Of a DNA stretch of 64,000 bases, positions 1,356 to 52,464 are shown piece by piece. The notes below the pieces were generated by a model. The model worked only from the letters and a program-made list of their open reading frames with translations. It was not told the DNA's origin and ran no database searches. Position 1 is the stretch's first letter; each line of letters begins with the position of its first letter. This DNA is from a virus (lineage: Duplodnaviria; Heunggongvirae; Uroviricota; Caudoviricetes): the IMG/VR virus record IMGVR_UViG_3300043470_002422; one strand, written 5' to 3'. A program made the translations under genes and the position numbers.

Positions 1356-1748
1356 ATGACAGACCAGGAAATTTTCGACCTAGCCAAAGACCTAGATACT
1401 ATTGGCCACCAACAGAAGGAAATCATCAGGTTTATCTTCTTAGAAAAAAGACAATCTCAAGATGATTGGTTAGATTTTATGCGCCACTTCTCAGGTAAGA
1501 GGTTAATCTCTTTGAGCCACAAATCTGTCTACTCCTCCTTTGCACATTGGTCTCCTGAAGACGAAACCGGATGGGCAGAGAGATACTATAAGGGCAGAAC
1601 TTTAGAAGGACCTTGGGCAGCAGTACTAGAGGAAATCCAAACCATCAAAGACACCTTTCCCCATCTAAAATTTATCATCAGAGAAACGGACGAACATATT
1701 TCTTATCATCGAATAGACGATATTCGTTGTCAAATTTGGACTTTGTAA
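1356..1748 (+). CDS. hypothetical protein
   Basis: ORF immediately preceded by the class A motif. Confidence 0.55.
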   Translation: MTDQEIFDLAKDLDTIGHQQKEIIRFIFLEKRQSQDDWLDFMRHFSGKRLISLSHKSVYSSFAHWSPEDETGWAERYYKGRTLEGPWAAVLEEIQTIKDTFPHLKFIIRETDEHISYHRIDDIRCQIWTL

Positions 1749-3173: not shown

Positions 3174-3175
3174 CC

Positions 3176-3388: not shown

Positions 3389-3418
3389 CCGTATCTTCTA
3401 ACACAACAACACAGCCAA

Positions 3419-3754: not shown

Positions 3755-3768
3755 CCGTATATTCTAAT

Positions 3769-3933: not shown

Positions 3934-3941
3934 ATTCCAGT

Positions 3942-4217: not shown

Positions 4218-4218
4218 C

Positions 4219-4452: not shown

Positions 4453-4467
4453 CCCGTATATTCTAAT

Positions 4468-4785: not shown

Positions 4786-4811
4786 CTTCATAATCGACCG
4801 TATATTCTAAT

Positions 4812-5126: not shown

Positions 5127-5135
5127 TTTAAGACC

Positions 5136-5393
5136 ATGAGCAACTCAATTTTAAAAGTCATCTTAGGGGTAACCATCTTCTTCTTCATCTTAGTCGTCTT
5201 CACAGCCTGCGAAAAGCAAGCTCAATCCTCAACCATCAAAGGCCACAACATCGAAGTCGAATTCCTCTTCGAGCAAGACTCAGTCAAGGTCTACAGATTC
5301 TATGATGGTTCATACCACTACTTCACCACCAGAGGCGAGACCATGAGCACAAAGACTACAGGCAAAACCTCCCACCAGGAGAACATCAAATAA
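5136..5393 (+). CDS. small putative lipoprotein / membrane protein
   Basis: N-terminal signal or TM segment ending in FTAC (lipobox-like). Confidence 0.45.
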   Translation: MSNSILKVILGVTIFFFILVVFTACEKQAQSSTIKGHNIEVEFLFEQDSVKVYRFYDGSYHYFTTRGETMSTKTTGKTSHQENIK

Positions 5394-5394
5394 A

Positions 5395-5680
5395 GACATT
5401 GTGTGTGTTGTTAAACTTAGGTCCCTCCGGGGACCTTTGTTGTGGAGTAGGGGCTAGTAAAAGGACCCCTCCAGGGTCTGTGTGTAATAGAGAGGGCCCT
5501 CCAGGGAGTGGAGGGGGACCTAATTAGGGGTCCTATTAGGGGGTTAAGGGCCCCTTATATAAGGGGTACCTTGGAGGGGGTCCTGTAACGCTGAGGGGAC
5601 CCCTACAGGGGAGATTCAAGGGGGGGCCTCACGTAGGGGGTCTGTTGGTGGCAGGTCCAGACGCTCAGCGAAGTCCAATT
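5395..5680. repeat. GC-rich G-tract and palindrome island inside an AT-rich genome
   Basis: More than 15 runs of GGGG or longer. Inverted repeats of the AGGTCCC...GGGACCT type and a perfect 16-bp palindrome CCCCTTATATAAGGGG centred on the class B core. Confidence 0.6.
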
Positions 5681-5773
5681 GGATTTCCAGGTAGTCCACT
5701 TGGGATTCTTCATAGCTTTCCTAGTCTTTCCTGGTCTTTCCTGGTTCTCCACCCTAATCTCCTTCCACAGTAG

Positions 5774-5784
5774 AATATATAGGC
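5774..5784 (+). promoter_or_regulatory. Class B motif (GAATATATAGG) 2 nt before ATG 5787
   Basis: Same GGATATATAAG-type element as upstream of the other MKH-leader genes. Confidence 0.5.
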
Positions 5785-5786
5785 AC

Positions 5787-6587
5787 ATGAAGCACATCCT
5801 AGCCTTTCCCCTATTTGAATCCGTGTCCTTGACTCCAGACCAGAAAGTCTTTCTGGAAATGTGTATGGAGAACACCAATCTCAATTCCAAGTTTGTCCAA
5901 GACCCTGCAACAGGCAAGGTGACAACTCTGGGCAAATTCGATGCCCAGTACTATTACGAATCAAGACCAAACTCCGATAAGCAGAAGATCAGGGATCTGT
6001 TTAACTCCATTCCCTTTGGAGTAGCAGAAGGGAACTTCTCAGTCAGAGGGATGTACTTGGACGCTATGGTCAATTTCCCATCTTCAGTAGAAGGAACTTT
6101 GTCCCTCAGCAGGAACTCCCTGCTAACCTTGGAGGGAATACCTAAGATGATCTATAAGGATTTGAGTCTTGAAGACAATCACCTCATCTCTCTAGAAGGC
6201 ATGGAAGAGACAGAAGTTAGAGGAACCATCTGGTTTGCAGACAACTGGATCAGAGGTCTCTGGTTGAGAGAAGATCTGACCAGAGCCAAAGCCATTGGCA
6301 CTTGGGTTCCAATCTATCTGGACATCCTCTCAGGAGAGACCTCGTTCAGTGGGATTCCAAATCCCAACGAGCAGGAAGAGGCAAAGGCATTCATCATGGA
6401 GAAGAAGACGACAAAGGCTCAGATGGAAGAAGCCATCAGGGTGGCACCAGCAGAGATGACTGTGGCTCTCAGCAGAAAGCGGACTATGCCTCAGGAGATG
6501 CAAGATCTACTTCCGACACTGAATGTTCCTGAAGGATTCTGGGATGCTCCTGATCTCATGGGGGATCTGGAGGGAGTAGGACTGTAG
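5787..6587 (+). CDS. CTS-like-leader family protein with LRR-like 22-aa repeats and a C-terminal DLEGVGL
   Basis: Real start is ATG 5787 (MKHILAFPLFES); the ORF-track start at 5679 is an alternative upstream start. Internal repeats of the form N-x-L-x-x-L-E-G-x-P. Ends GDLEGVGL. Confidence 0.6.
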   Translation: MKHILAFPLFESVSLTPDQKVFLEMCMENTNLNSKFVQDPATGKVTTLGKFDAQYYYESRPNSDKQKIRDLFNSIPFGVAEGNFSVRGMYLDAMVNFPSSVEGTLSLSRNSLLTLEGIPKMIYKDLSLEDNHLISLEGMEETEVRGTIWFADNWIRGLWLREDLTRAKAIGTWVPIYLDILSGETSFSGIPNPNEQEEAKAFIMEKKTTKAQMEEAIRVAPAEMTVALSRKRTMPQEMQDLLPTLNVPEGFWDAPDLMGDLEGVGL

Positions 6588-6605
6588 ATGTTTCCGTACC
6601 AGTGA

Positions 6606-6618
6606 GGGATATATAAAC
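6606..6618 (+). promoter_or_regulatory. Class B motif GGGATATATAAAC
   Basis: Upstream of the ferritin-like gene. Confidence 0.5.
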
Positions 6619-6634
6619 CAAAATTTAACACCCA

Positions 6635-7246
6635 ATGGCAACACTAAAAGAATTCTTAACTATGAGAGAGAACATGGAAATCCAAGCAATTGAGGTTCCT
6701 GGTCTTGAACTGCCTGCTCAGACTTCCGAGCCTGTAGTAGTAGGATCAGGAGTGCCTAAACCAAAGACTCTGTCATCAGAGATCATCTCGGCTTTAGAAG
6801 CAAGACTCAAAGATGAATACACAGCTCACTACACATACCGTAACGCAGCCAACTGGTGCAAGAACATGAACTATAAGGCAGCAGCAGCCTACTTCGAAGG
6901 CGAAGCAGCAGAGGAGTTAGAACACGCAGCTGGACTTCAGGATTACATGACCCAGTGGAACTGTTTACCACAGATCCCACCTGTAACTGTGCCTAACGAG
7001 TTTACCTCTCTTGTGCATATCATAGGACATGCCTACACTATCGAGTATGATCTGCTTCAGAAGTACTCTGCACTTCAAAGGGCCTTTGATGCTGCTCATC
7101 CTGCTACATTCAATTTCATTCAGAAGTATGTAGACATTCAGAATGAGTCTGTTGCTAGCTACTCTGATCTCCTAAATGCTCTTGAGCTCATTAACATTGA
7201 TTCCAAGCTAGACATTCTAATCTTCGAAGGAAGATATTTCGGATAA
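6635..7246 (+). CDS. ferritin-like protein with an N-terminal extension
   Basis: Di-iron ferritin signature spacing EYTAHYTY...AAEELEHAAGLQDY...TIEYDL...IQNESV. Confidence 0.6.
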   Translation: MATLKEFLTMRENMEIQAIEVPGLELPAQTSEPVVVGSGVPKPKTLSSEIISALEARLKDEYTAHYTYRNAANWCKNMNYKAAAAYFEGEAAEELEHAAGLQDYMTQWNCLPQIPPVTVPNEFTSLVHIIGHAYTIEYDLLQKYSALQRAFDAAHPATFNFIQKYVDIQNESVASYSDLLNALELINIDSKLDILIFEGRYFG

Positions 7247-7268
7247 TCTTATAACACAAACACAACAC

Positions 7269-7300
7269 GAAGGTGTCTCTACTAGGGGCACCTTCTTTGT
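7269..7300 (+). terminator. Hairpin (GAAGGTG ... CACCTTC) followed by a T-rich tract
   Basis: 7-bp stem with a 13-nt loop, then TTTGTGTGT. Confidence 0.35.
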
Positions 7301-7458
7301 GTGTCCTAGTCTTATATGTAGAATGGATTGGGGTGCCGCCGGGAGGGGATGTAAACCCAAAATTTGGGCCTGAGCTTGGGAGGCCCTAGGGGGATCGGGA
7401 GCAAAACTCAGGGGCAGGGCCCAGCGCGCTTTAAAGCACATGATTGACATTGCCTGCA

Positions 7459-7470
7459 GGGATATATAAG
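7459..7470 (+). promoter_or_regulatory. Class B motif GGGATATATAAG 3 nt before ATG 7474
   Basis: Consensus copy. Confidence 0.55.
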
Positions 7471-7473
7471 CGA

Positions 7474-8301
7474 ATGAAGCACTTGCAGACATATAGCATC
7501 TTTGAATCCAAGACGGTACTGACTGAAGACCAGGAGACGTTCTTGTCTCTCTTCGTCGAACCTCTTGAGAATTCGAAGGGGATGCCTGGGACTTGGTCCG
7601 TCAACCCAAAAACCGGCTTGGTTGACGTCAATGGAAACTTTGAGTGCCCACAAAGGGGATTGAAGGACTTTAAGGGAATCTCCTTTGGCCATGTGAGTGG
7701 AGCCTTTGACTGCGATCGAAACGAACTTGTCAGCTTGAAGGGTGCACCTCAGTTGGTGAGAGATTTCTCCTGCGATCGAAATGACCTTGTCAGTCTCGAG
7801 GGAGCACCTCAGTTTGTCAGGGGAGGCTTCTACTGCAACACCAATAGGCTGAAGAACTTAAAAGGTGGCCCGGTAGAAGTGGGAGGGGATTTCTCCTGCG
7901 TTGGCAATGACCTCAAGACCTTGGAGGGAAGTCCAAGAACGGTGGGAGGGGATTTCTACTGCTATTCAAATTCAACTTCTCTTATCTCTTTAGCAGGGGC
8001 TCCAGAAACAATCGGTGGGACTTTTCACTGCGACTGGTTTGAACTTTCCAACTGGGGGGTTCCTGGCCTGCTGGAGACCATCAAGAAGGTCAACCCCAAA
8101 GCTCAGAAGATGATTTTGGACCTCCTGACTCCTGAGAAAATACAGCAGACGATTGACAGAGAGCCTGAGAAGATGGCTGTTGAATTAAAGGGGGTTTGGA
8201 AGACCCTGAAGGCGGATCCAAAATATGCAGGGCTAAAATTTCCAGAAGGAATCCAAGGGGATGCAGAGATGCTGTCAGACCTGGACGACGTTGGTCTTTA
8301 A
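7474..8301 (+). CDS. CTS-like-leader family protein with six LRR-like 22-aa repeats and a C-terminal DLDDVGL
   Basis: ATG 7474 (MKHLQTYSIFES). Repeats of the form C-D-R-N-x-L-V-S-L-x-G-A-P-Q-x-V. Ends LSDLDDVGL. Confidence 0.65.
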   Translation: MKHLQTYSIFESKTVLTEDQETFLSLFVEPLENSKGMPGTWSVNPKTGLVDVNGNFECPQRGLKDFKGISFGHVSGAFDCDRNELVSLKGAPQLVRDFSCDRNDLVSLEGAPQFVRGGFYCNTNRLKNLKGGPVEVGGDFSCVGNDLKTLEGSPRTVGGDFYCYSNSTSLISLAGAPETIGGTFHCDWFELSNWGVPGLLETIKKVNPKAQKMILDLLTPEKIQQTIDREPEKMAVELKGVWKTLKADPKYAGLKFPEGIQGDAEMLSDLDDVGL

Positions 8302-8312
8302 GGATATATAAG
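8301..8312 (+). promoter_or_regulatory. Class B motif AGGATATATAAG
   Basis: Immediately 5' of ATG 8315. Confidence 0.55.
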
Positions 8313-8314
8313 AC

Positions 8315-9199
8315 ATGAAGCACCTACAAACTTATCGTCGATTTGAATCTCAGCATGCCCTGAATGAAGGGGATGAATATCGCAAGATGAACATGGACTA
8401 CCTCTTGAACAAATTTACTCGAGTTCCAAACAACGGGAAGTTGTACAACCCTTCGGAGGAAGACTTTGCAGATCTGCCTTGGTATCAAGCCTTGAAGGGG
8501 GCATTTCCAGATTTCAAACTGGAGAGGGTCAGAAAGAAAGGGAATGGCTACTCTTGGTTCTTCCCTGGGCCAAAACCCAAACCTCAGGCTTTCTACGAGG
8601 TTTTCAGAGAAGGTGACAGAGACTCCCCCTCTGAAGAGCCGGCCAAGATTGTATTCAACAACGATTTAATGACTTCATCTCAGACGTTCACAATTTTACT
8701 CAACGATAAAGAGTCTTGGAATGAGCTCTTTAAGCTGCTCTATTTTGCCCAGTTTGAAGGAAAAATATCAGGACCTACTTGGAGGGGATTAAAACACATT
8801 ATGGAACTCTTCTCTTCGGATTTGGAGTCTTTTTACAAGACCGGAAATCTGGGAATAGTTGGAGTGAAAAAGGATTGCAACCCTTATGGAGGACACTACG
8901 AGTCCTCAGTTGATTTTCTGAAGAACCTTCCTTATGGCATCTTTGATGATCTGAAGGCTGGATTTGTCAAGAAGATGAAAGAAGATCCTGCGGAGATTCA
9001 GTATGCAATTTCTCAGTGTCAACTTCCGAAAGGAACAGCAGAGACCGTATTTGGCACAGCTAGACTCTACCCAGAAAATGAGGTGCTGAACTTCTACAAT
9101 CTGATGAAGCAAGAAGGTTATGTTCCACCGGCCGGATTTGACGAAGAAACTGGGGAAATTTCAGATATACACAAATCTCTAGGGGACATCGGTCTGTAG
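8315..9199 (+). CDS. CTS-like-leader family protein, C-terminal LGDIGL
   Basis: MKHLQTYRRFES leader. Ends SLGDIGL at a TAG stop. Confidence 0.6.
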   Translation: MKHLQTYRRFESQHALNEGDEYRKMNMDYLLNKFTRVPNNGKLYNPSEEDFADLPWYQALKGAFPDFKLERVRKKGNGYSWFFPGPKPKPQAFYEVFREGDRDSPSEEPAKIVFNNDLMTSSQTFTILLNDKESWNELFKLLYFAQFEGKISGPTWRGLKHIMELFSSDLESFYKTGNLGIVGVKKDCNPYGGHYESSVDFLKNLPYGIFDDLKAGFVKKMKEDPAEIQYAISQCQLPKGTAETVFGTARLYPENEVLNFYNLMKQEGYVPPAGFDEETGEISDIHKSLGDIGL

Positions 9200-9210
9200 C
9201 ATATAAGGAC

Positions 9211-9252
9211 ATGAAGCACATAAAACTATTTGAAGACTACTCAGACGAAGAT
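9211..9252 (+). repeat. 42-nt exact direct repeat (second copy at 9786-9827)
   Basis: atgaagcacataaaactatttgaagactactcagacgaaga is identical at both positions. Confidence 0.8.
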
Positions 9253-9789
9253 TTAGCAGGACTAATGTCCGATCTAGATGGGGTTGGTCTTATGAATAAA
9301 GTAATTGTTAGCTTCGGGGAAAAAATTCCAATTCCTCAAGAGGTGACCCATCCATCTTGGTGGGCAGAGCCTTGGGGGAAATTTGCCATCGTGGAGATTT
9401 ACACTCCAGAGAAAGGTCCAAAGGCAGAACAACTGGCTTTCGAAAAAATTAAAAAGGGAGACTTCACTCAAGATTTATCGAAATTAGATACTGATGCTTA
9501 CAAGAACAGAATTTCCAACATTCTGAAGTTTTTTAGTTCGGAGAGAATTCAGAAGGAAGCTCAAGAATCTCGGGACGTGGTGGAATTCAAAACTCGAATT
9601 CACGAAAAGTCGGGACAGATCCTATTTAACGAATGGGAAGGTATAGTCGAGAAATATCTCGAAGGAAAATCTGAAGATTATGCGAAAGAATTTTTCAACA
9701 CGCTTTGGAAATCCACCCCCAAATCAGCCAAGCAAGAGATTGCCGGATCCACAGCAATAAAAGTTTTGCAAACCGAAGTAAATAAATGA
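9211..9789 (+). CDS. CTS-like-leader family protein, N-terminal MKHIKLFEDYSDE...SDLDGVGL
   Basis: Leader plus the DLxxVGL motif within the first 27 aa. Paralog of the next gene. Confidence 0.6.
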   Translation: MKHIKLFEDYSDEDLAGLMSDLDGVGLMNKVIVSFGEKIPIPQEVTHPSWWAEPWGKFAIVEIYTPEKGPKAEQLAFEKIKKGDFTQDLSKLDTDAYKNRISNILKFFSSERIQKEAQESRDVVEFKTRIHEKSGQILFNEWEGIVEKYLEGKSEDYAKEFFNTLWKSTPKSAKQEIAGSTAIKVLQTEVNK

Positions 9790-10358
9790 AGCACATAAAA
9801 CTATTTGAAGACTACTCAGACGAAGAAATCAAGTCCCTCATGGGGGACCTTGCCGAGGTTGGTCTGGGAAAGAAATGGAGGGTTGTTGGATCAATATCCA
9901 CAGTTACCCCAGAAGTCAACTACTATAGAAACTGGGAAGAACAAGTCCATGAGGTTTTCATTGTGGAAGTTGCTGCAGATTCAGAGAAGACGGCATATTT
10001 AGAGGCCTTTGAAAAACTTAAATCTGGAGACTTCACTCAGAAACTTTCAGATGAAATGGAAAAATGGAATAACGTTCTGAATAAAATTCCAGAGGTGGGA
10101 AAAATTCTTTCCAAAGACAACATCATCAAAGCTGCTAATGGAAAGGCAAATCAGCAGCCAATGGAGAGGAAGGACATTACAGGAAATCCAATCTATGACG
10201 GAAAAATTAGATGGGTCATGACTGTTGATCTTGTGGGTCCGACTGAAGAGGCAATTCTAAATAAGATAAAGTCCATGACAGGAGGTGTTGTTAGCCCAGA
10301 GATGGAGGAATTTGTTAACGAAAATGTGGGTTGGAACTTAAGAGCAGAAGAAATATGA
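9786..10358 (+). CDS. CTS-like-leader family protein, tandem paralog
   Basis: MKHIKLFEDYSDEEIKSLMGDLAEVGL. Shares AFEKxKxGDFTQ with the upstream gene. The ATGA start and stop overlap. Confidence 0.6.
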   Translation: MKHIKLFEDYSDEEIKSLMGDLAEVGLGKKWRVVGSISTVTPEVNYYRNWEEQVHEVFIVEVAADSEKTAYLEAFEKLKSGDFTQKLSDEMEKWNNVLNKIPEVGKILSKDNIIKAANGKANQQPMERKDITGNPIYDGKIRWVMTVDLVGPTEEAILNKIKSMTGGVVSPEMEEFVNENVGWNLRAEEI

Positions 10359-10426
10359 GACGCTTAAAGTCATATAAAATATTCGAGGCTAATAAGCCTA
10401 CAAGTCTATAACAATCGAAATTTATT

Positions 10427-10442
10427 TACCGTATCTTTCTAT
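10427..10442 (+). promoter_or_regulatory. Class A variant TACCGTATCTTTCTAT
   Basis: Upstream of ATG 10451. Confidence 0.45.
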
Positions 10443-10450
10443 AACATAAT

Positions 10451-11110
10451 ATGGAAGATCAAGAATTGTGGGATCTCATGGGAGACCTTGAAGACGTTGG
10501 GCTTGGAGATAGTATCACCAAGGCTTATTCGATTACGGGATTTTATGAAGATGGGGAAGAGCATCTCGACAACGACATTTTGACTGCTAATATCTTGAAT
10601 GCTTTTATTGAAGTCAATGAATCAGATGGGGCTGATTTATTTCTTGACAAACTAGACGAGCCAAAATCTCCTCATATGGACCCTTTAGTTTCCTCCTGGT
10701 TTGGTGACAACTACCTTATAATCAAAGGAAACTTCACCAGGGTTAGATCAGTCGAAGAAAGGCTAAGAAAAGAGTTTGTAATCGAAAAAGAGGTTGAGCT
10801 TAAAGACTATAAAAAATTAGAGCTTAGTGGAAGTTCCGGATCTTACGGTGCGACTGGAATTTCAGGAACTCCTGGAATTTCAGGAACGACTGGATATGCT
10901 GGAACTACCACGGTTGTATATTCTTCCCCAGGATTGAGCGGGTCTTGGTCCACCTCAGGAGTAACGGTTTCTGTCTCAACTCCAAAGATGATCCAAACTT
11001 CTGTCAAGATCGAAATGCCGATCAGGGAGCTAAAAGATCCACCAGAAGATGAGGTTGAGACCTACGGACATCCTCTTTGGGAAAAGATTAAAGGTAAACT
11101 AGGATTCTAA
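10451..11110 (+). CDS. protein with an N-terminal GDLEDVGL motif and a Gly/Ser/Thr collagen-like low-complexity stretch
   Basis: MEDQELWDLMGDLEDVGLGD, then GATGISGTPGISGTTGYAGTT. Confidence 0.55.
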   Translation: MEDQELWDLMGDLEDVGLGDSITKAYSITGFYEDGEEHLDNDILTANILNAFIEVNESDGADLFLDKLDEPKSPHMDPLVSSWFGDNYLIIKGNFTRVRSVEERLRKEFVIEKEVELKDYKKLELSGSSGSYGATGISGTPGISGTTGYAGTTTVVYSSPGLSGSWSTSGVTVSVSTPKMIQTSVKIEMPIRELKDPPEDEVETYGHPLWEKIKGKLGF

Positions 11111-38308: not shown

Positions 38309-38321
38309 GGATATATAGGGG
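38309..38321 (+). promoter_or_regulatory. Class B motif GGATATATAGGGG
   Basis: Upstream of ATG 38341. Confidence 0.5.
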
Positions 38322-38340: not shown

Positions 38341-39453
38341 ATGGCTAAAACGTTATTACCCTTTGCTCTCTATGAAGAGCTTGAAAAGATAGAATCTTTA
38401 AATCCAGATGAAATGAGAAATTTCTTGTCTTCTCTTCAGAAGTATTGTGAATCTACAGGAAAAGATTTTACTAAAGTTTGTACTGACATTGGACTTGAAG
38501 CTCCTTCCTGGGCAGGAAAATTGACCCACAAACAGAATGTATTACTAAACTCCCTTATCTCAAGGGATTATTACAGTGAAGAAGATGAAGGAACCTCTTG
38601 GTCAATAAATCCCGAAACCGAAAGACTTGATGTAATTGGGAAATTTAAAATATCATCTTACAATAAAGAGAAATGGGGGGAATTAATAGAAATGGGGATA
38701 AAAATTGGTAAGGTAAAAGGTTATTTCGACGTTTCCGATTGTGGCATTGATTCATCAGAGGGATTCCCTACTGAAGTAACTGGGGATTTTAATATCAGTG
38801 GTAATAAATTAACCAATCTAGTTGGATGTCCCGTAAAAGTAGGGGGTAAATACAAATGTGATAGAAATAAATTAACCTCTTTAGAAGGAGCACCAGAACT
38901 ATCAGACAATTTTGATTGCAGCGACAATAGTGGTCTAAGAAACTTAAAAGGAGGACCTAAGGAAGTAACCTCTATTTATTATGCTAATAGATGTAATCTG
39001 GATTCTCTAGAAGGGTTTCCTAGTATAATAAGTCCTTCTATATCCATTTATGTAGACAGTAATAATCTTTATACACTAGAGGGTATTCCTCTAAGCCCTG
39101 CAATTTCTCCTTATAGAATCAGATGCAACAAGAACCCATTAAAAAGTTCAGTTTTAACAAATGCTTACAAAGAAGCAGCTAGAACTGGAAGCTGGGCAGT
39201 TGGATATCTAAGTATGTTTACCGATCCTGAATTCATCAAAACCGGAAAAGCTCCAAAGGATCCAATTAGAGAAAAATTATCTCCTGCGAATTTAAAGAAA
39301 GAAATTGAAACCAACGGGGAAGCTTTTGTAGTTGGTCTTAAATCAATCTGGAAGGATTTCAGGGTTCAAAAAATTCTAAAAGGAATTGAAATCCCAGAGG
39401 ACACCAAAGCAGACGCAGAATTGCTAGCAGATTTAGATGACGTTGGACTTTAA
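38341..39453 (+). CDS. LRR-like 22-aa repeat protein with a C-terminal DLDDVGL (same family as 7474-8301)
   Basis: Repeats of the form C-D-R-N-K-L-T-S-L-E-G-A-P. Ends ELLADLDDVGL. Confidence 0.6.
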   Translation: MAKTLLPFALYEELEKIESLNPDEMRNFLSSLQKYCESTGKDFTKVCTDIGLEAPSWAGKLTHKQNVLLNSLISRDYYSEEDEGTSWSINPETERLDVIGKFKISSYNKEKWGELIEMGIKIGKVKGYFDVSDCGIDSSEGFPTEVTGDFNISGNKLTNLVGCPVKVGGKYKCDRNKLTSLEGAPELSDNFDCSDNSGLRNLKGGPKEVTSIYYANRCNLDSLEGFPSIISPSISIYVDSNNLYTLEGIPLSPAISPYRIRCNKNPLKSSVLTNAYKEAARTGSWAVGYLSMFTDPEFIKTGKAPKDPIREKLSPANLKKEIETNGEAFVVGLKSIWKDFRVQKILKGIEIPEDTKADAELLADLDDVGL

Positions 39454-39460: not shown

Positions 39461-39991
39461 ATGAAGTATCTAGAACTATTCGAAGCATTTAATCCCTCCG
39501 GGGATAAATTGGGATTTGGAAAACAAATTCAATCCCATATACAACAATTAGTTGGGAAGAATTTCGGAACCCCTTATGTGGTTACTTCAGCAGAGGTAAC
39601 AAGAGCTGAAAGTGAAGGGTTTGCAGATCAAAGCGGACAAGGGGATTTAGTTCTAACTTTCAAAAAAGAATCTCCGGATGAGCTGGACGAACTTATTTCT
39701 GATTTAACCTCTGTAGGATTATCAGAAGAAAGGAAGATAGAATTTGGGTGGGACGTTATTGCTACGATGGAAACAGAATCTTCTCCAGACGGAGACCCTC
39801 TTTGGGATTTAACCTATAACATCTATACAGACTCCCCCGTAGTTTTTCTACAGTTCCCTGAAATATTCAGGGGTGAAGTAAAACACCTCTACGACATGTC
39901 TTATGGAGTTGGCAGCGTAATCAAAGGGTTAATAGAGAAAACAATAAATCGTTTAGTATACGAATCTAAAATGGGTAATAAGAACAAGTAA
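39461..39991 (+). CDS. CTS-like-leader family protein (MKYLELFEAF) with an internal DLTSVGL
   Basis: Leader and motif as in the 9211 and 9786 paralogs. Confidence 0.55.
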   Translation: MKYLELFEAFNPSGDKLGFGKQIQSHIQQLVGKNFGTPYVVTSAEVTRAESEGFADQSGQGDLVLTFKKESPDELDELISDLTSVGLSEERKIEFGWDVIATMETESSPDGDPLWDLTYNIYTDSPVVFLQFPEIFRGEVKHLYDMSYGVGSVIKGLIEKTINRLVYESKMGNKNK

Positions 39992-42309: not shown

Positions 42310-42319
42310 TAGCTAGAAA

Positions 42320-43905: not shown

Positions 43906-43917
43906 GGGATATATATC
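43906..43917. promoter_or_regulatory. Palindromic class B motif GGGATATATATC in a divergent intergenic region (bidirectional promoter candidate)
   Basis: Reads as the class B motif on both strands, between minus gene 42320-43873 and plus gene 43936. Confidence 0.5.
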
Positions 43918-43935: not shown

Positions 43936-44328
43936 ATGAAAAACATTAAATTTTTTGAGGACTTTAATTCCGAAGTTCCATCCCAAGAAATCCACGAAGG
44001 ACACGGAGAAATGCAGAACTACATGTTCTTTCAAAATCTTCACACGCTTAAAAATGCAATTGAAGAATTGATTGAATTAGATCCTGTTAAAGTCGATGGT
44101 ATTCTTGCAGACGGTCACGGATGGGCTTTAGATCACATTGCTACATCAGTAGATGACGTTGAGGAGGTTTATCACTTCTTATCTAACTCTATTGAAATGG
44201 GACATGAAGGGGAAGAACACGGGGAAGACCACGAAGAAGGTCACGAAGAAATGGGGATGGAAATCCAAGTTTCACCAGACGAGGTAGAAGTTGAAACTGA
44301 AGACGAAGACGAAGAAGACGAAGACTAA
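43936..44328 (+). CDS. acidic His/Glu-rich protein with a CTS-like leader (MKNIKFFEDF)
   Basis: Leader matches the family. C-terminal HEGEEHGEDHEEGHEE and poly-acidic tail. Confidence 0.55.
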   Translation: MKNIKFFEDFNSEVPSQEIHEGHGEMQNYMFFQNLHTLKNAIEELIELDPVKVDGILADGHGWALDHIATSVDDVEEVYHFLSNSIEMGHEGEEHGEDHEEGHEEMGMEIQVSPDEVEVETEDEDEEDED

Positions 44329-46175: not shown

Positions 46176-46587
46176 CCAATTTTTTAATTTTAAAAATTAA
46201 AGATTCCATGGCTCCCGGATATTTTCCGTTGTCGCTAGATCTCTCTGGATATTCGGTTAAATAAGGATCTTCTAATTTCACTTTCTTACCTTTATGATTA
46301 GAAACGGTTTTATCCTCGTAGTAAAGAAGATCTAAATCCATTAGGGATCCAAGCATTTTATCAACTTCAAAATCTTCTTCTTCTAAACCGGTTAGATTTA
46401 TAAACATTTCTATGGCATATTTCGGATCTATCCAACCCATCCCAGAAGTAACTATATCAATGATATTATCTGTAGCGGATTTAGGATCCATAGATTCGTT
46501 CAAAAACTCACCATATTCTTTAATATTGATTCCCATTTTTATAAAAGTTTTTTTGCTTCTTCGAAATCTTCTGCAGTTAAATTCCAT
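46162..46587 (-). CDS. hypothetical protein
   Basis: Overlaps its neighbours by a few codons. Confidence 0.5.
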   Translation of the reverse strand: MEFNCRRFRRSKKTFIKMGINIKEYGEFLNESMDPKSATDNIIDIVTSGMGWIDPKYAIEMFINLTGLEEEDFEVDKMLGSLMDLDLLYYEDKTVSNHKGKKVKLEDPYLTEYPERSSDNGKYPGAMESLIFKIKKLDEFH

Positions 46588-47285
46588 CCAGCTATTTTTT
46601 CTTTGATGAATTTCTTAGCTTCTGGATATGTTGCGTCAGTGTTATCTTTTAAATATGCTAACAATTTTTCTCTAATCGCCGGATGAATTCCTTCAGATTC
46701 TAAAATTTCTTCCGGAAACTCAAATTCTAAGCTTTCGGTTGTCAATTTAATTTCTGATAAAATCTTTTTCAATTCCTCCTGGACTTTTATTTTATCTCTT
46801 CTAGATGCTCCTCCTTGACCGATGAAAACATTAAATTCTTCGATCATATCATCGGTTAATTCCTCATCCAGTTCAACTAATGGTTTTTCTGAATTTTCCC
46901 AATCGTCTGTTCCAAATCCTATTTCCATCACCGGAACGTCGTTAGCAGCAGCTTCTATTCCCATTGAATCTGGATCTTGGTATTCTTGAGCATCTTCGTC
47001 CCAAATCTTGTAATTTTCCTCGAACTCCGGAGAGGTTGAATCAAAATAGAAAATGTAGTTTTTACCTGTTTTTTGATCTTTTAATGTTGCAAACTCAAGA
47101 AAATCTGTAGATGTTAATTTTAAGTTGTGCTTGGAGGGATTGATTCCTCTAAGATCCTCAACTTCTCTATAATCATCTTCTCTGTACCCGGGAGGGAGGT
47201 TTCCGGATGGAGAGGTAGTTACACCAAATAAGTCTGCCTCGTTATTTTTTAGATGAAATTCATCGAAAGATAAAATTTTTGCCAT
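46539..47285 (-). CDS. hypothetical acidic protein
   Basis: Class B motif on the minus strand (47302-47314) upstream of its ATG. Confidence 0.5.
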   Translation of the reverse strand: MAKILSFDEFHLKNNEADLFGVTTSPSGNLPPGYREDDYREVEDLRGINPSKHNLKLTSTDFLEFATLKDQKTGKNYIFYFDSTSPEFEENYKIWDEDAQEYQDPDSMGIEAAANDVPVMEIGFGTDDWENSEKPLVELDEELTDDMIEEFNVFIGQGGASRRDKIKVQEELKKILSEIKLTTESLEFEFPEEILESEGIHPAIREKLLAYLKDNTDATYPEAKKFIKEKIAGWNLTAEDFEEAKKLL

Positions 47286-47301: not shown

Positions 47302-47314
47302 GTTTATATATCCC
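47302..47314 (-). promoter_or_regulatory. Class B motif (GGGATATATAAAC on the minus strand)
   Basis: Reverse complement of GTTTATATATCCC. Confidence 0.5.
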
Positions 47315-48964: not shown

Positions 48965-51094
48965 ATGACTGAAAACAATATAATTGGAGAGAACTTATTG
49001 GGAGATATCTTATACACTCCTCCTAAAATTTCAATGGGACCTATCGATGACGATGATATTGATGATGTTCCAAGCTACAAATCTAATCCAACCTCTTCAA
49101 CCACTCCTGCCCTAGATTCTTTTAGCAGGGATTTAACAGCTCTAGCTGCAAAGGGAGAACTTGATCCAATTGTAGGAAGAGATTCTGAGATCGAAAGAGT
49201 TTCTCAAATTCTAGGTCGTAGGAAAAAGAACAATCCAGTTCTAATAGGGGAACCCGGGGTTGGTAAATCAGCAATTGCCGAAGGACTAGCACTTAGAATT
49301 TTCCAAAGAAAGGTTTCTAGAAATCTACTAAATAAGAGAGTAGTTAGTTTGGATATGGGTCTAATTGTTGCCGGAACTAAATACAGGGGTCAGTTTGAAG
49401 AGAGAATGAAGTCCATTATGGATGAGCTAAGAAAAAATCCAGATGTAATTATTTTCATCGATGAATTGCACACTCTAGTTGGTGCCGGTGGTTCATCAGG
49501 ATCTTTGGATGCTTCTAACATGGTAAAACCTGCACTAGCAAGAGGGGAATTTCAATGTGTTGGAGCAACAACTCTAAATGAATATAGACAGTATATCGAG
49601 AAAGACGGAGCACTAGAAAGAAGATTTCAAAAAGTTATCATTGAAGCTCCAACTGCAGACGAGACAATTATAATTCTAAACAATATCAAGGCTAAGTACG
49701 AGGATCATCATAATGTTCAATACACTGACGATGCTATCATCAATTGTGTTAAGTTAACAGAAAGATACATTACCGACAGAAACTTCCCAGACAAAGCTCT
49801 AGATGCTTTAGACGAAGCGGGTAGCAGATCTCAATTAACCCAAGTTAAGGTTCCTGATGCATTGGTTAATTTAGAGAAGAATCTAGAGAAAACTACAGAG
49901 GAGAAAAAGAAGTGTGTTACCAAACAGGACTATGAAGGAGCTGCCAAATATAGAGATCTGGAAAGAAAGATTAAAGCTGGCATCGAATCGGAAACTAAAG
50001 CCTGGGAGCAAAAGCTAAAAGAGAAGAAGAAAATCGTAGACGGTGAAAAAGTTGCTGAAGTAGTTTCTTTGATGACTGGGATTCCTCTACAAAAGATCAG
50101 TCAGGACGAAAACGAAAGACTTGCTAAAATGGCTGAAGCTTTAAGAGATAGAGTTATTGGACAAAATGAAGCAGTTGAAAAAATATCAAAGGCAATTTTA
50201 AGAAATAGAATCGGTTTAAAAGACCCAAATCGTCCAATCGGATCATTTGTTTTTCTAGGACCTACCGGAGTTGGTAAAACCCAATTGGCTAAGGAATTGG
50301 CTAAAATGGTATTCGGTGATGCCGATGCAATGATTAGAGTTGATATGTCCGAGTACATGGAGAAATTCAATTCAACCAAATTGATTGGAGCTCCTCCAGG
50401 ATATGTTGGACACGAAGATGGTGGTCAATTAACAGAGAAAGTTAGAAGAAAGCCATATTCAGTAGTTCTATTTGACGAGATTGAAAAGGCCCATCCGGAT
50501 ATTTTCAACTCTCTATTACAAATTCTAGACGAGGGTATGATTACCGATGGATTAGGAAGAAAGATTAATTTTAAAAATTGTTTAATCATCTTGACTTCTA
50601 ACGTTGGTCAAAGAAAGGCTGCCGAATTTGGAGGAGGTGTAGGATTCAAATCTTTAGATAAGAGCAATGTGGAAAAAGAATCAAAGATCACGATCAGAAA
50701 AGAATTGGAAAAAACTTTCTCTCCGGAATTTCTAAACAGAATAGATGAAATTATAAACTTTAATTCTCTAACTCAAGATGATCTAATTAAGATTATAGAC
50801 GTTGAAATTAAAAAGATGACTCCGAGATTTGAAGATCTAGGGTTTAAATTAGTCATCTCTAAGGATCTAAAAGAAAAGATAGCAGAAAGAGGATATGACC
50901 CCAAATTTGGAGCAAGACCTCTGAAAAGACTTCTTCAAAAATATATCGAAGACACTATTGCAGAGCTCTTTATCCAAAAGAAAGTTGAATCAGGTTCTAA
51001 GATTACTCTATCCCTAGATTCTTCCAAAGATGCTGAGATCGAACCCCCAGTAAAGGTAAGAATCACAAATCCAAAAAAGGGCTCAGAAGAGTAA
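48965..51094 (+). CDS. ClpC/ClpA-family double-AAA+ unfoldase with a UVR-like insertion and no N-terminal Clp_N domain
   Basis: D1 Walker A GEPGVGKS and D2 Walker A GPTGVGKT. A UVR-like KKCVTKQDYEGAAKYRDLERKIK lies between them. Confidence 0.7.
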   Translation: MTENNIIGENLLGDILYTPPKISMGPIDDDDIDDVPSYKSNPTSSTTPALDSFSRDLTALAAKGELDPIVGRDSEIERVSQILGRRKKNNPVLIGEPGVGKSAIAEGLALRIFQRKVSRNLLNKRVVSLDMGLIVAGTKYRGQFEERMKSIMDELRKNPDVIIFIDELHTLVGAGGSSGSLDASNMVKPALARGEFQCVGATTLNEYRQYIEKDGALERRFQKVIIEAPTADETIIILNNIKAKYEDHHNVQYTDDAIINCVKLTERYITDRNFPDKALDALDEAGSRSQLTQVKVPDALVNLEKNLEKTTEEKKKCVTKQDYEGAAKYRDLERKIKAGIESETKAWEQKLKEKKKIVDGEKVAEVVSLMTGIPLQKISQDENERLAKMAEALRDRVIGQNEAVEKISKAILRNRIGLKDPNRPIGSFVFLGPTGVGKTQLAKELAKMVFGDADAMIRVDMSEYMEKFNSTKLIGAPPGYVGHEDGGQLTEKVRRKPYSVVLFDEIEKAHPDIFNSLLQILDEGMITDGLGRKINFKNCLIILTSNVGQRKAAEFGGGVGFKSLDKSNVEKESKITIRKELEKTFSPEFLNRIDEIINFNSLTQDDLIKIIDVEIKKMTPRFEDLGFKLVISKDLKEKIAERGYDPKFGARPLKRLLQKYIEDTIAELFIQKKVESGSKITLSLDSSKDAEIEPPVKVRITNPKKGSEE

Positions 51095-51104
51095 TATATA
51101 GAGC

Positions 51105-51301: not shown

Positions 51302-52168
51302 TTGAAAAATATAATTCTATATGAGGAATTTTCCGACGGATTGAACCGTTTGAGATCGATTTTCGAATCTCTAGAATCAAATCCTATTGCTAACATAGAG
51401 GTTTATAACCGAAATATGGAAGCATCCTATCCGGATAAATTATTCTTTTTAGATATTATAAATCCGGATGTTATCGTAGATTTTGGGTGTGCAGACGGAA
51501 CGATCCTTTCCAAGATGAAGGAGAAAAATCCAGATGTTAAATTGATAGGATACGATCTTAGTAAAGCTATGCTTGCTAAAGCAAGAGCTAAACTAGGACC
51601 AGACGTTTTATTAACCGATTCTTGGAGTGAGGTTCAATCTGAATTGGAATCTTATGATAAACCAGCTCTTGTATTATCTTCGGTAATTCACGAAGTTTAT
51701 TCTTATTCTCATCCTAAAGAAGTTAAAAAATTCTGGGAGGATAGAGTATTTGGTGGAGACTTTAAATGGATAGTAATCAGAGACATGATTCCTTCTGTTG
51801 AAATGAGTAGAAAAGAAGCATCCGAATTCCAGGACGATGTTGACAAAGTTAAATCTGCGGCAGATCCAAAATACTTAAAGTCTTACGAAGAAAAGTGGGA
51901 TGATATTGGAAGCAGCTATAAATTCTTAGCTCACTTTTTACTAAAATATAAATTCACAGATAACTGGACTAGAGAAGTAGCAGAAAACTATCTTCCTCTT
52001 TCTCTTGAAACTCTATACAAGAAAATACCTCCGGGATATGAAATTATTTTTGAAGATAATTTTGTTCTTCCCTATCTAAAAAAAGAAGTCAAAAAGGACT
52101 TCGATGTAGACATTAAGCACACTACACATGCTAAAATGATTATAGAAAATAAAAATTTTGAAAAATGA
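51302..52168 (+). CDS. class I SAM-dependent methyltransferase with a CTS-like leader (MKNIILYEEF)
   Basis: Motif I VVDFGCADGT. Confidence 0.5.
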   Translation: MKNIILYEEFSDGLNRLRSIFESLESNPIANIEVYNRNMEASYPDKLFFLDIINPDVIVDFGCADGTILSKMKEKNPDVKLIGYDLSKAMLAKARAKLGPDVLLTDSWSEVQSELESYDKPALVLSSVIHEVYSYSHPKEVKKFWEDRVFGGDFKWIVIRDMIPSVEMSRKEASEFQDDVDKVKSAADPKYLKSYEEKWDDIGSSYKFLAHFLLKYKFTDNWTREVAENYLPLSLETLYKKIPPGYEIIFEDNFVLPYLKKEVKKDFDVDIKHTTHAKMIIENKNFEK

Positions 52169-52464
52169 AAAATCTAGCACTCTATGAATCTTTCACCGAA
52201 TCTTTAAACGAATCAAGAACAAGAAAGAATCTAATGCACGAACTTCTTAACATTCCAGAAGATAAAAAAATCTCTGACATTTATAAGAGCGGTAAGAAAT
52301 TAGCAGAAGAATTGGTTGCAGCAATCAAGAAGAGCAACATAGTTCCAGAAAAAGAGGTTCAGAAAAAAGCTACCTCGATGCTAGCCTTTGTTGGTAACTG
52401 GCCTAATGATCCTAAGAATTCCGTTTTTGATGTTGCTCTGAGACACGTCAAATCTCTCTTTTAA
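52165..52464 (+). CDS. small protein with a CTS-like leader (MKNLALYESF)
   Basis: Leader only. Confidence 0.45.
   Translation: MKNLALYESFTESLNESRTRKNLMHELLNIPEDKKISDIYKSGKKLAEELVAAIKKSNIVPEKEVQKKATSMLAFVGNWPNDPKNSVFDVALRHVKSLF

Follow-up and report, generated by a model that had tools for sequence, protein, structure and literature searches.

A shared N-terminal leader on unrelated proteins of a giant freshwater phage: a possible cleavable capsid-targeting propeptide

Organization of the leader genes

The window, i.e. the whole stretch of 64,000 nucleotides analysed here, derives from a giant uncultured freshwater phage and belongs to a ~400-kb Bacteroidota-type megaphage lineage. Nine of its protein N-termini read MK[HNY][IL]xx[FY]E or the longer MKHLQTYx[LI]FE[SA], and a variant is present on 38341 (genes are named by their first position); in all, 9-10 of ~90 ORFs carry this leader. 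A second common motif is an acidic helix, (L/M)xDLxx(V/I)GL, referred to as the tail. The genes concerned are listed below.

1356..1748, + strand: N-terminal tail-like motif MTDQEIFDLAKDLDTIG
5787..6587, + strand: LRR-type protein, leader MKHILAFPLFES, C-terminal tail DLMGDLEGVGL
6635..7246, + strand: ferritin-like protein within the cluster (Pfam Ferritin, E=6.7e-21)
7474..8301, + strand: LRR-type protein, leader MKHLQTYSIFES, tail MLSDLDDVGL
8315..9199, + strand: 294-aa protein unrelated to the others, leader MKHLQTYRRFES, tail KSLGDIGL
9211..9789, + strand: small alpha/beta protein, N-terminal leader MKHIKLFEDYSDE, leader and tail joined as MKHIKLFEDYSDEDLAGLMSDLDGVGL
9786..10358, + strand: paralogue of 9211, leader MKHIKLFEDYSDE, identical leader-plus-tail module
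10451..11110, + strand: tail motif alone at the N-terminus, MEDQELWDLMGDLEDVGL; Gly/Ser/Thr-rich collagen-like stretch
38341..39453, + strand: LRR-type paralogue, variant leader MAKTLLPFALYEE, tail LLADLDDVGL
39461..39991, + strand: leader MKYLELFEAF, internal tail-like helix ELISDLTSVGL at residue 80
43936..44328, + strand: acidic His-rich 130-aa protein, leader MKNIKFFEDF
46539..47285, - strand: variant leader MAKILSFDEF
48965-51094: ClpC/ClpB-type double AAA+ protein
51302..52168, + strand: SAM-dependent methyltransferase (Methyltransf_12, E=3.5e-8), leader (L)KNIILYEEF
52165..52464, + strand: 99-aa protein, leader MKNLALYESF

All the leader N-termini listed in an earlier sequence-only reading of this DNA were found, that of 51302 only from a TTG start (its first ATG is at 51416). 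Gene 10451, which had been counted as a related member, does have the reported sequence, but it begins with the tail motif and has no leader. The family is larger than had been reported, and the acidic helix had been only half noticed; the variant leader of 38341-39453 and the motif (L/M)xDLxx(V/I)GL are additions to the earlier list. The cargo types named there were all recovered: LRR-like proteins (an AF2 model and weak Foldseek LRR matches), the acidic His-rich protein and the methyltransferase. The ferritin-like protein lacks the tail motif, and its 50-aa N-terminal extension begins MATLKEFLTMRE, which is similar to T4 MKTYQEFIAE.

Conservation and distribution of the leader

In all-vs-all BLASTP comparisons of the members, 5787, 7474 and 38341 (LRR type) proved to be paralogues, as did 9211 and 9786, and between the other groups similarity was limited to residues 1-13 and the final 11 residues. 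The leader stands at true N-termini of at least three unrelated folds (LRR solenoid, alpha/beta domain and Rossmann methyltransferase), and its codons vary by member (AAG/AAA, CAC/AAC/AAT/TAT, TTG/CTA/ATA/ATC/ATT, TTT/TTC/TAT and GAA/GAG); because the codons differ, the conservation lies at the protein level, as had been proposed. A logo of 97 LRR homologues reads M [KR] H [LI] [QK] [TSP] [FY] x [LIV] [FY] E [SAT].

In AF2 models of 7474 and 9211, the leader is predicted to be disordered (pLDDT <50 in both). The model of 7474 has a mean pLDDT of 93, with 49 for leader residues 1-10 and 83-93 for the tail helix (261-272). For 9211 the values are 48-61 for residues 1-30, mostly 84-98 for the core, 75 for residues 161-170 and 56 for the last residues.

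At capsid-gene loci picked irrespective of the leader, it was found at 12 of 870 ORF starts vs 1 of 4,772 internal Met positions, and it is absent from all 311 ORFs of PTm1, the nearest cultured relative that has MS-based structural annotation. Because of these counts and that in the window, the leader is regarded as lineage-specific and restricted to N-termini; its absence from PTm1 also counts against the packaging interpretation given below. In a complete 635-kb relative, 44 of the 923 ORFs are leader genes, and 443 homologues of 7474 were found in metagenomes. The leader-plus-helix pattern matched in 25 IMG/VR contigs vs none of 185,579 bacterial and archaeal genomes, a distribution limited to viruses. 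As a contiguous 27-aa module it is N-terminal in 75 representative clusters comprising at least 14 BLAST-unrelated cargo groups, and one locus (L106) has eight module genes in tandem. In LR745206.1, many leader proteins extend as leader, spacer, acidic helix, xDxG[FY] and then a strand.

The acidic helix

The position of the acidic helix varies. The proteins 5787, 7474, 8315 (as SLGDIGL) and 38341 end in it; in 9211 and 9786 it directly follows the leader, 10451 begins with it, and 39461 has it internally. Orthologues of 5787 in L023 and L024 retain both leader and tail, and three further small proteins ending in the tail motif are encoded just upstream of the window (L005). The helix variant is genome-specific: the window lineage has DLxDVGL, L009 has GFDELGLF and L084 has KLGL[LM]. 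This genome dependence suggests a binding partner that is probably phage-encoded. A clamp-binding role was ruled out for the tail, as it has no Q and LR745206.1 encodes a separate small protein ending KLDFLFD, like the T4 clamp-binding tails.

A candidate late promoter

The element ATATATA, which resembles a late promoter, was found upstream of the leader genes at the following positions.

5775..5781, + strand: ATATATA, late-promoter-like, 12 nt ahead of the 5787 ATG
7462..7468, + strand: ATATATA, 12 nt ahead of the 7474 ATG
8304..8310, + strand: ATATATA, 11 nt ahead of the 8315 ATG
9200..9206, + strand: variant CATATAA, 11 nt ahead of the 9211 ATG
38311..38317, + strand: ATATATA, 30 nt upstream of 38341, at the head of the unit 38341-39461-39997
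43909..43915, no strand: palindromic GATATATATC, between the divergent 43936 (+) and 43873 (-, MoxR-like)
51094..51100, + strand: ATATATA, 11 nt ahead of 51105; the unit includes leader genes 51302 and 52165

ATATATA also lies 26 nt upstream of 6635, 27 nt upstream of 43936 and 26 nt upstream of 46539, an ATATATA-type element precedes the AAA+ gene, and 9786 is translationally coupled, without a promoter of its own. All leader genes of the window are in ATATATA-headed units (Fisher p=0.0025), and the association is also seen in LR745206.1 (odds ratio 3.6, p=1e-4). Among related phages, the element is located 28-51 nt upstream of the MCP gene in 45 of 67 unique IMG/VR loci, vs 3% of control windows, and in ~40 of 55 metagenome loci; the portal and protease genes of the clade are likewise preceded by it. 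As it stands before the capsid, portal and protease genes alike, ATATATA is probably the late promoter. Its distances to the ATG peak sharply at -11/-12, about one third of cases starting 11-12 nt before the ATG, and this geometry suggests that such mRNAs would be leaderless.

Head genes and cleavage triplets of the clade

The head genes of related phages are of the T4 type: Portal_T4, a gp21-family S77 protease fused to the scaffold, and a gp23-family MCP. The PTm1 MCP belongs to PF07068 and PTm1 gp300 matches Peptidase_S77 with 43.6 bits; the L047 portal matches Portal_T4 (E=7e-59), and the L047 protease can be aligned to T4 gp21 over GELNHP/GEFDHP (E=2e-4). The sequence-only reading had proposed a search for a gp21-like prohead protease; neither a protease nor any other head gene was found in the window or in the contigs retrieved for it, and the head genes are known from the relatives and LR745206.1.

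In the MCP of the clade, INE|N occurs near residue 45 in 48 of 56 sequences, and the protease-scaffold begins MKPVLIVE|N, the same template as the leader. The corresponding T4 sites are LTE-65 (gp23) and LIE-9 (gp21). Of the 97 LRR homologues, all of which keep the Glu, 95 have L/I/V at P3. Some members break the (I/L)-x-E rule that had been read into the leader, with RFE in 8315 and FFE in 43936.

Interpretation of the leader

Our best explanation, which we hold tentatively, is by analogy that the leader may be a cleavable capsid-targeting propeptide of the T4 capsid-targeting sequence (CTS) type. Many unrelated proteins share flexible first 8-12 residues of the form M-K-x-(I/L)-x-x-(F/Y)-...-(L/I/V)-(F/Y)-E. 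The ATATATA promoters would be read by late transcription machinery of the T4 kind in the late phase of infection, many of the mRNAs being leaderless to judge from the promoter geometry. During prohead assembly, the hydrophobic residues 4 and 7 would dock the proteins on the scaffolding core, i.e. the protease-scaffold fusion; the gp21-family protease would then cut after Glu and free the mature cargo inside the head, and the cargo would be ejected together with the DNA. Likely cargo would be the tandem-array LRR binders, the small alpha/beta proteins, the ferritin-like protein, the methyltransferase and the acidic His-rich protein. If this is true, the analogy with T4 Ip1-3 suggests that they are pre-made anti-defence or takeover effectors.

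The T4 CTS analogy put forward in the sequence-only reading is partly supported, having withstood all the indirect tests applied. In its favour are the presence of the leader on unrelated folds, at N-termini only and in viruses only, its predicted disorder, its CTS-like layout (hydrophobic residues at 4 and 7, then (L/I/V)-x-E), the T4-type head genes of the clade, (I/L)-x-E at the MCP and protease positions homologous to the T4 gp23 and gp21 cleavage sites, and the promoter element that leader genes share with MCP, portal and protease genes. Besides the members that break the P3 rule and the origin of the head genes from relatives and LR745206.1, several points count against it. With 44 leader genes in one genome and at least 10 in the 64-kb window, the repertoire exceeds all known CTS repertoires roughly tenfold. 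No (L/I)-x-E site precedes the tail helix, and the helix is without counterpart in the T4 model; we regard it as a separate, position-independent docking element that would stay on the mature protein, and this is the weakest part of the model. The identity with the T4 CTS, being short, could be convergent or coincidental.

The number of tagged genes would suit a non-prohead hub better than a capsid, and leader and acidic helix might together be a portable docking tag to such a hub, without cleavage or packaging. Candidate hubs are a ClpC/ClpB-like unfoldase, a MoxR-VWA pair, the late transcription/replication machinery and a host protein, and ClpC-like and MoxR genes of the window lie behind the same promoter element. 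The breadth of cargo joined to the 27-aa module, its tandem genes in L106, the freedom of the tail to be C-terminal, N-terminal or internal, its genome-specific variants and the flexible appendage formed by residues 1-30 of the B-type protein all fit such a tag. Still, no partner was found, the tail is neither a clamp-binding motif nor spaced like the encapsulin LxVGSL peptides, and the invariant Glu after L/I/V, with its match to MCP and protease sites, is left unexplained; we consider this explanation unlikely, though of some weight. It is very improbable that leader and/or tail are degrons by which the phage ClpC-like ATPase, together with a host protease, would time the breakdown of late accessory proteins. 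The AAA+ gene has the shared promoter element, and the tags are flexible, hydrophobic-acidic and located at the termini, but tails also occur internally, neither ClpP nor an adaptor was seen in the window, and the match with the capsid and protease cleavage triplets would be left unexplained.

Descent could instead account for the pattern if all members formed one huge, fast-diverging paralogous family, with a structural or regulatory N-terminus, odd cargos acquired by domain swaps and no signal in the leader. The longer common pattern in LR745206.1, the tandem arrays, which point to duplication, and the confidently packed tail helix of the LRR model agree with this; it is rather improbable, however, given that the leader is predicted to lie outside any fold, that it occurs on solenoid, alpha/beta, Rossmann and low-complexity acidic proteins alike, and that in the LRR homologue of a Vibrio phage the repeats come with neither leader nor tail. 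Finally, the -11/-12 peak puts the transcription start at or beside the ATG, a geometry seen in most leader genes having their own promoter, and the leader residues often come from AT-rich codons. The conserved start might thus reflect a nucleic-acid constraint on leaderless late mRNAs (initially transcribed sequence, 5'-terminal ribosome loading) and not peptide function. This is quite improbable, because the residues are conserved in spite of free variation at synonymous positions, coupled operon-internal genes retain the leader (9786, 39461, 52165 and 7 of the 8 L106 genes), and other genes with the -11/-12 spacing have no leader (51105, MIFIDL; L025, MKKDRK).

Comparison with known systems

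Encapsulin cargo-loading peptides are short, terminal, hydrophobic and Gly-containing, occur at either end of unrelated cargos, including ferritin-like ones, and bind the inner face of the HK97-fold shell. Their consensus is spaced L-x-[VI]-G-S-L, whereas the tail reads DL-x-x-[VI]-G-L, and no gene for an encapsulin shell was seen. The T4 late promoter TATAAATA, which depends on gp55, gp33 and gp45, likewise resembles a -10, consists of A and T only, lacks a -35 and stands before capsid, portal and protease genes; the element here differs in being ATATATA and in lying 11-12 nt from the ATG in about one third of cases.

In P1, an N-terminal peptide of DarB is enough for a heterologous protein to be packaged in the capsid (PMC9024508), but that signal has 30 residues, belongs to one protein, is no multigene leader and has no known cleavage motif. 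The head and ejection propeptides of phiKZ, 201phi2-1 and SPN3US also come from giant phages with many packaged proteins, cleavage occurs after Glu, and the diverged ejection paralogues gp53 and gp54 of SPN3US share an identical 15-residue N-terminus that includes the cleavage motif (PMC5694885). Their gp21-like protease cuts (S/A/G)-x-E, with a small P3 in place of the aliphatic L/I/V seen here, and the propeptides, from another phage lineage, are long and family-specific, in contrast to one universal decapeptide.

The T4 system differs from the present one in the leader itself (MKT[YF][QK]EF vs MKH[IL]K.[FY]E or MKHLQTYxLFES), in the number of genes (3-10 ip genes vs tens of members per genome) and in the Shine-Dalgarno 5'UTR of its ip genes, whereas the late promoter here abuts the ATG. 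The cargo here is larger, with LRR solenoids and enzymes among proteins of 100-370 aa, an acidic-helix motif is added, and the system is known from sequence alone. The claimed likeness to the T4 leaders (MKTYQEFIAE|A, MKTFKEF...ITE|A) stands for the layout, but residue identity is limited to M1, K2, hydrophobic 4, K/Q 5 and aromatic 7. In the T4 CTS, residues 4 and 7 serve targeting and residues 8 and 10 processing (PMC9026906). Propeptides at both termini have a precedent in T4 Alt (ITE-6 and LTE-619). As in IpI, IpII, IpIII and the polymorphic T-even ip loci, a leader of ~10 residues is the sole common part (PMC12373910; PMC3012670) of proteins that in T4 are unrelated, non-essential and rapidly varying and are encoded in variable clusters. 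Both leaders begin with M-K, have a hydrophobic or aromatic residue at each of positions 4 and 7 and end in (L/I)-x-E, and both occur in phage clades with gp20-, gp21- and gp23-type head genes.

An N-terminal leader shared by unrelated proteins

All the N-termini quoted in the sequence-only reading were recovered, at the positions given there, by ORF listing and translation, and two forms of the leader can be distinguished among them (genes of the window are named here by their start coordinate). The short leader, M-K-[HNY]-[IL]-x-x-[FY]-E, begins the products of genes 9211, 9786, 39461, 43936, 51302 and 52165, and the long leader, MKH[IL]xx[FY]x(x)[LIR]FES, begins those of genes 5787, 7474 and 8315; MKHIKLFEDF and MKHLQTYRLFES are examples. 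Gene 51302 needs a TTG start, because its first ATG lies 38 codons downstream. A variant leader was also found:

38341-39453, gene with the variant leader MAKTLLPFALYEE

An all-vs-all BLASTP comparison of the window members yielded an LRR-type paralogue group (5787, 7474 and 38341), a pair (9211 and 9786) and the singletons 8315, 39461, 43936, 51302, 52165 and 10451, and similarity between groups was restricted to residues 1-13 and the last 11 residues. The cargo folds are unrelated to each other (AF2, Pfam), the short N-terminal leader being their sole similarity, and at nearly every synonymous site of the leader the codons vary between members. A methyltransferase domain in 51302 was the sole match among the family members in Pfam, PHROGs and NCBIfam, where no family was found for any other member.

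The LRR-type protein has 443 homologues, every one of them metagenomic. In the best 120 of these the long leader was observed in 97 and the short one in 7. Position 4 is always L or I and position 7 always F or Y (97 of 97 LRR homologues each), and L/I/V-[FY]-E followed by a small residue was found in 95 of the 97. An ending of the (L/I)-x-E type, scored here as a motif at which cleavage would take place, is also present in most window members, the exceptions being RFE (8315) and FFE (43936).

The cargo domain of 5787, 7474 and 38341 is an LRR solenoid of LxxLxLxxN-type repeats. In the AF2 model of 7474 (mean pLDDT 93) this solenoid is followed by a helical bundle, and the leader is predicted to be disordered (pLDDT 49). 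Only weak, generic LRR matches were obtained with this model by Foldseek against the PDB (E>=0.026), and PF12799 is precomputed on some of the LRR homologues. The model of 9211 (mean pLDDT 85.5) has a well-defined alpha/beta core.

A second shared motif, an acidic helix

MEDQELWDLMGDLEDVGL, which had been listed as a relative of the leader, turned out to be a separate element, namely an acidic amphipathic helix with a (V/I)GL end and the consensus (L/M)xDLxx(V/I)GL, referred to here as the tail. It forms the extreme C-terminus of 5787, 7474, 8315 (SLGDIGL) and 38341, immediately follows the leader in 9211 and 9786 (MKHIKLFEDYSDEDLAGLMSDLDGVGL), stands at the N-terminus of 10451 and, in a weaker form, of 1356, and is internal in 39461. 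It also closes three small proteins that lack the leader and are encoded a short way upstream of the window (L005). In the model of 7474 the tail is a confident terminal helix. In 9211, leader and tail together (residues 1-30) have a pLDDT of 48-61 and are therefore predicted to be a flexible appendage. In 10451-11110 the N-terminal tail is followed by a Gly/Ser/Thr-rich, collagen-like stretch (GSSGSYGATGISGTPGISGTTGYAGTT), which is kept in the two ~400-kb relatives, L023 and L024.

The form of the tail depends on the genome. The lineage of the window has DLxDVGL, a 231-kb phage contig (L009) has GFDELGLF or GFEELGI in about 12 proteins, the related locus L084 has KLGL[LM], and further metagenomic LRR homologues have DLERAGIF or DLQDLRDLGI. 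About 95 of the best 120 LRR homologues carry a tail.

Sliding-clamp-binding tails have the consensus QL[SD]LF, with LDFLF in T4. A clamp-binding function of the tail was rejected, since DLxx[VI]GL, GFDELGLF and KLGLL carry neither Q nor LDFLF and the tail also occurs internally. Encapsulin cargo-loading peptides are of the LxVGSL type, and their cargo genes lie beside the gene of the encapsulin shell. This function was rejected as well, because the spacing differs and a ferritin-like protein of the leader cluster has no tail; no encapsulin shell domain was found among the proteins scanned with Pfam. No (L/I)-x-E site was consistently present before the C-terminal tail across members.

Extent of the family and lineage specificity

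A profile of the 32-residue contiguous module, that is, leader plus tail, matched 75 representative clusters, nearly all of them at residues 1-26 or nearby, and the cargos of the module fall into at least 14 groups unrelated by BLAST. The back-translated module pattern gave 25 matches in IMG/VR, one of them an operon with eight tandem module genes, and none in 185,579 species genomes of bacteria and archaea. In capsid-gene loci that had been picked independently of the leader, the leader starts 12 of 870 ORFs versus 1 of 4,772 internal Met positions. The complete relative LR745206.1 (634,780 bp), whose major capsid protein (MCP) is 71% identical to that of a clade member, has 44 leader-initiated ORFs out of 923, scattered round the genome.

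None of the 311 ORFs of the cultured relative PTm1 starts with the leader, and a scan of its whole genome revealed no leader or tail protein annotated as a virion protein; therefore no proteomic evidence can be borrowed from PTm1. An LRR homologue from a Vibrio phage consists of pure repeats, with neither leader nor tail, and an IMG/VR search with the LRR protein matched only leaderless LRR-domain relatives. Megablast and tblastn searches of GenBank phages with the cluster and with the 31-aa module found nothing, and neither the leader nor the leader-plus-helix module is described in the family models, GenBank phages or literature searched.

In the 231-kb contig, about 12 tandem LRR-type paralogues (L009:7698-14079 and 18798-20816) each have their own ATATATA 11-12 nt before the ATG. 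They adjoin a divergent sigma-70-like gene (L009:3091-3975).

A putative late promoter upstream of leader genes

The family genes are preceded by GG(A/G)ATATATA(A/G)G. Occurrences of ATATATA were surveyed in the window, in two sets of related loci (L025-L105 and L146-L225) and in LR745206.1. The elements of the window are:

5775-5781, ATATATA element
6609-6615, ATATATA element
7462-7468, ATATATA element
8304-8310, ATATATA element
38311-38317, ATATATA element
43909-43915, ATATATA element
47305-47311, minus strand, ATATATA element
48627-48633, ATATATA element
51094-51100, ATATATA element

ATATATA lies 25-50 nt upstream of the MCP gene in about 40 of 55 unique metagenome loci, and similarly in 45 of 67 unique IMG/VR MCP loci, compared with 3% of control windows. 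Because it precedes the MCP, portal and protease-scaffold genes, we read it as the late promoter of the clade, a putative counterpart of T4 TATAAATA; leader genes would then be transcribed late, at the time of head assembly. The distance between element and ATG is bimodal, peaking sharply at -11/-12 and broadly from -24 to -36; the sharp peak suggests that many late mRNAs of the clade are probably leaderless.

Within the window, the element immediately precedes five of the strict leader genes, and the remaining four lie further down in units headed by it (Fisher p=0.0025). In LR745206.1 it stands before 52% of leader genes and 23% of the remaining ones (odds ratio 3.6, p=1e-4). The promoter geometry does not account for the leader, which operon-internal genes retain and other genes of the -11/-12 class lack. 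A recombination cassette, with the tail-promoter-leader junction as crossover site, found no support, because neighbouring genes differ in the DNA of this junction.

A 133-aa protein of LR745206.1 (261501-261902, minus strand) ends in KLDFLFD, which resembles the clamp-binding tails of T4 gp33, gp55 and gp43; we regard the protein as a candidate co-activator of late transcription in these phages.

Three further window loci have the putative late element upstream:

6635-7246, ferritin/Dps-like protein in the leader cluster, start MATLKEFLTMRE
40329-43873, minus strand, operon of MoxR-like AAA+, DUF2201 metallopeptidase-like and VWA-like genes
48965-51094, plus strand, ClpC/ClpB-type double AAA+ protein with UVR motif

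The ferritin/Dps-like protein has a conserved N-terminal extension of 50 residues and is kept in both ~400-kb relatives. The MoxR protein starts with MGKRVFSFDDY, which resembles the leader.

Head genes and putative cleavage sites in the clade

PTm1 encodes a gp23-family MCP (PF07068), a prohead core scaffolding protein and protease (43.6 bits against Peptidase_S77) and a portal. In a related locus (L047) the portal matches Portal_T4 (E=7e-59), and a 690-aa protein encoded upstream aligns with T4 gp21 over GELNHP/GEFDHP (E=2e-4). A 146-aa protein encoded near the capsid gene of this locus (L047:17873-18313) ends in FDFDDDLPF, like the acidic tip of bacterial SSB.

The N-termini of the clade MCPs are homologous to the T4 gp23 delta region (KQKALKKWSPVLE vs KAELLNKWKPLLE) and carry H-x-I-N-E/N near residue 45 (slashes mark actual or putative cleavage positions), with INE in 48 of 56. 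The protease-scaffold protein of the clade (for example L047:7851-9923) begins with MKPVLIVE/N, the same template as the leader. The corresponding T4 sites are LTE-65 (gp23), LIE-9 (gp21) and IAE-9 (gp22) (PMC9026906 and our alignment). From these triplets we infer that the clade protease, like that of T4, would have (I/L)-x-E specificity.

It is important to mention that the T4-type protease, scaffold and gp23-type MCP were seen in the clade (PTm1, L047 and LR745206.1) and do not come from the window's own ~400-kb genome; the 231-kb and 400-kb contigs were not among the homologues of the PTm1 MCP. Because the head genes of the window genome were not recovered, the link between leader and head genes rests on the shared motifs and on LR745206.1, where the clade MCP and the 44 leader genes occur in one genome.

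Genome context of the window

The window derives from a ~400-kb megaphage, probably of a Bacteroidota host, the size being suggested by synteny of its 5-20 kb region with two contigs, one 399,968 bp and the other 391,244 bp long, and the host by type IX secretion (T9SS) domains and by the relatives. Two features are of note here:

15814-20907, 1,697-aa protein with a type IX secretion sorting domain (CHU_C) at its C-terminus and eight PKD domains
24516-25574, PurZ-like adenylosuccinate-synthetase homologue, matching a PHROG annotated as PurZ-type (2-aminoadenine pathway)

The presence of a T9SS substrate in a phage speaks for a host among the Bacteroidota; a Por_Secre_tail protein is also encoded in L024. 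Homologues of 13577-14785 occur in Tenacibaculum phages PTm1, PTm5 and pT24, in Lak megaphages and in Bacillus phage G, and freshwater metagenome contigs hold genes identical to those of the window. The phage DNA may contain Z base, as the PurZ-like gene hints; in L023 this gene is kept beside that of a NADAR protein.

The window also codes for NAMPT and many glycosyltransferases. The region 53511-63330, together with its continuation past the window end in L001, holds genes for glycosyltransferases, sugar aminotransferases, epimerases and a 2OG-Fe(II) oxygenase, which suggests phage glycan synthesis or modification.

GC3 is 0.47-0.65 for genes 2733, 4812, 5136, 5787, 7474 and 8315 versus 0.25-0.35 for most of the window, so that 2733-9199 appears as a compositional island; the LRR paralogue 38341 has the genome-typical value of 0.25. 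Part of the leader cluster may have been recently acquired from a GC-richer relative. In the gap that separates 5136-5393 from the first family gene, a perfect 16-bp palindrome, CCCCTTATATAAGGGG, at 5551-5566, may serve as a terminator stem or an operator.

Possible functions of the leader

The best-supported mechanism, whose probability we place somewhat short of even, is that the leader serves late-made cargo as a capsid-targeting propeptide that is then cleaved. Leader genes would be expressed late, from leaderless transcripts; the leader would dock the cargo to the scaffold and would be cleaved, and the cargo would be packaged and later ejected. The phi-x-E triplets of leader and head proteins match. 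Against this mechanism stand the very large number of tagged genes, the acidic helix, for which it does not account, and the origin of the head genes from relatives. Its strongest rival takes leader and helix together as a docking tag for another hub, which we consider possible but doubtful.

Other explanations appear less probable still. We regard as improbable a paralogue family that diverges fast but keeps its N-terminal segment. Nucleic-acid constraints on leaderless mRNAs, to which the -11/-12 geometry might point, are more improbable again; an explanation of the leader at the RNA or DNA level was rejected on its synonymous variation and its operon-internal members. A degron function of leader or tail seems very improbable indeed.

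A broader form of the capsid-targeting mechanism, a speculative one that we think unlikely to hold as a whole, is a two-part code in which a cleavable MK-phi-xx-phi-...phi-x-E leader and a genome-specific helix would load dozens of pre-made effectors into the capsid. The leader would bring the proteins in and the helix would serve docking inside the head or ordered ejection; the effectors would comprise arrays of LRR binders, ferritin-like proteins and methyltransferases, made from leaderless late mRNAs. Up to ~5% of genes (44 in LR745206.1) would then be devoted to an arsenal ten times that of any studied phage.

Should the leader prove to be a capsid-targeting propeptide, sequence alone would suffice to list the proteins that uncultured jumbo phages and megaphages inject. 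Such phages would then be equipped with very large stores of pre-made effectors, likely serving anti-defence and takeover; the tandem LRR arrays would be candidate binders of host immunity components, and the leader would offer a compact tag for putting foreign proteins into large capsids. Whether or not the leader is a targeting signal, the putative ATATATA late promoter and the leaderless geometry should aid temporal annotation of this uncultured clade.

Comparison with T4 and other known leaders

In the T4 record, ipII and ipIII begin with MKTYQEFIAE/A and ipI with MKTFKEFTST...ITE/A. The first 10 residues of this capsid targeting sequence (CTS) are enough for encapsidation, residues 4 and 7 acting in targeting and residues 8 and 10 in processing (PMC9026906). 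The leader is the sole common feature of T4 Ip1-3, which are injected inhibitors of GmrSD enzymes (PMC12373910, PMC3012670). T4 Alt is trimmed at both ends, and the 15-residue N-termini of SPN3US gp53 and gp54 are identical (PMC5694885).

The leader of the present family starts with M1 and K2, is aliphatic at position 4, K or Q at 5 and aromatic at 7, and a phi-x-E triplet comes next. Compared with MKT[YF][QK]EF[IT], the main leader agrees at positions 1, 2, 4 (residue class), 5 and 7 only, in sequences too short for statistics; the ferritin-like protein (MATLKEFL) and MKSFTEF in L009 are closer to the T4 CTS. If the capsid-targeting reading holds, the CTS principle would reach far beyond the T-even phages, where it is known for only a few small proteins, and the present family would represent CTS-directed internal proteins on a far larger scale, in a different clade and with a second motif added.
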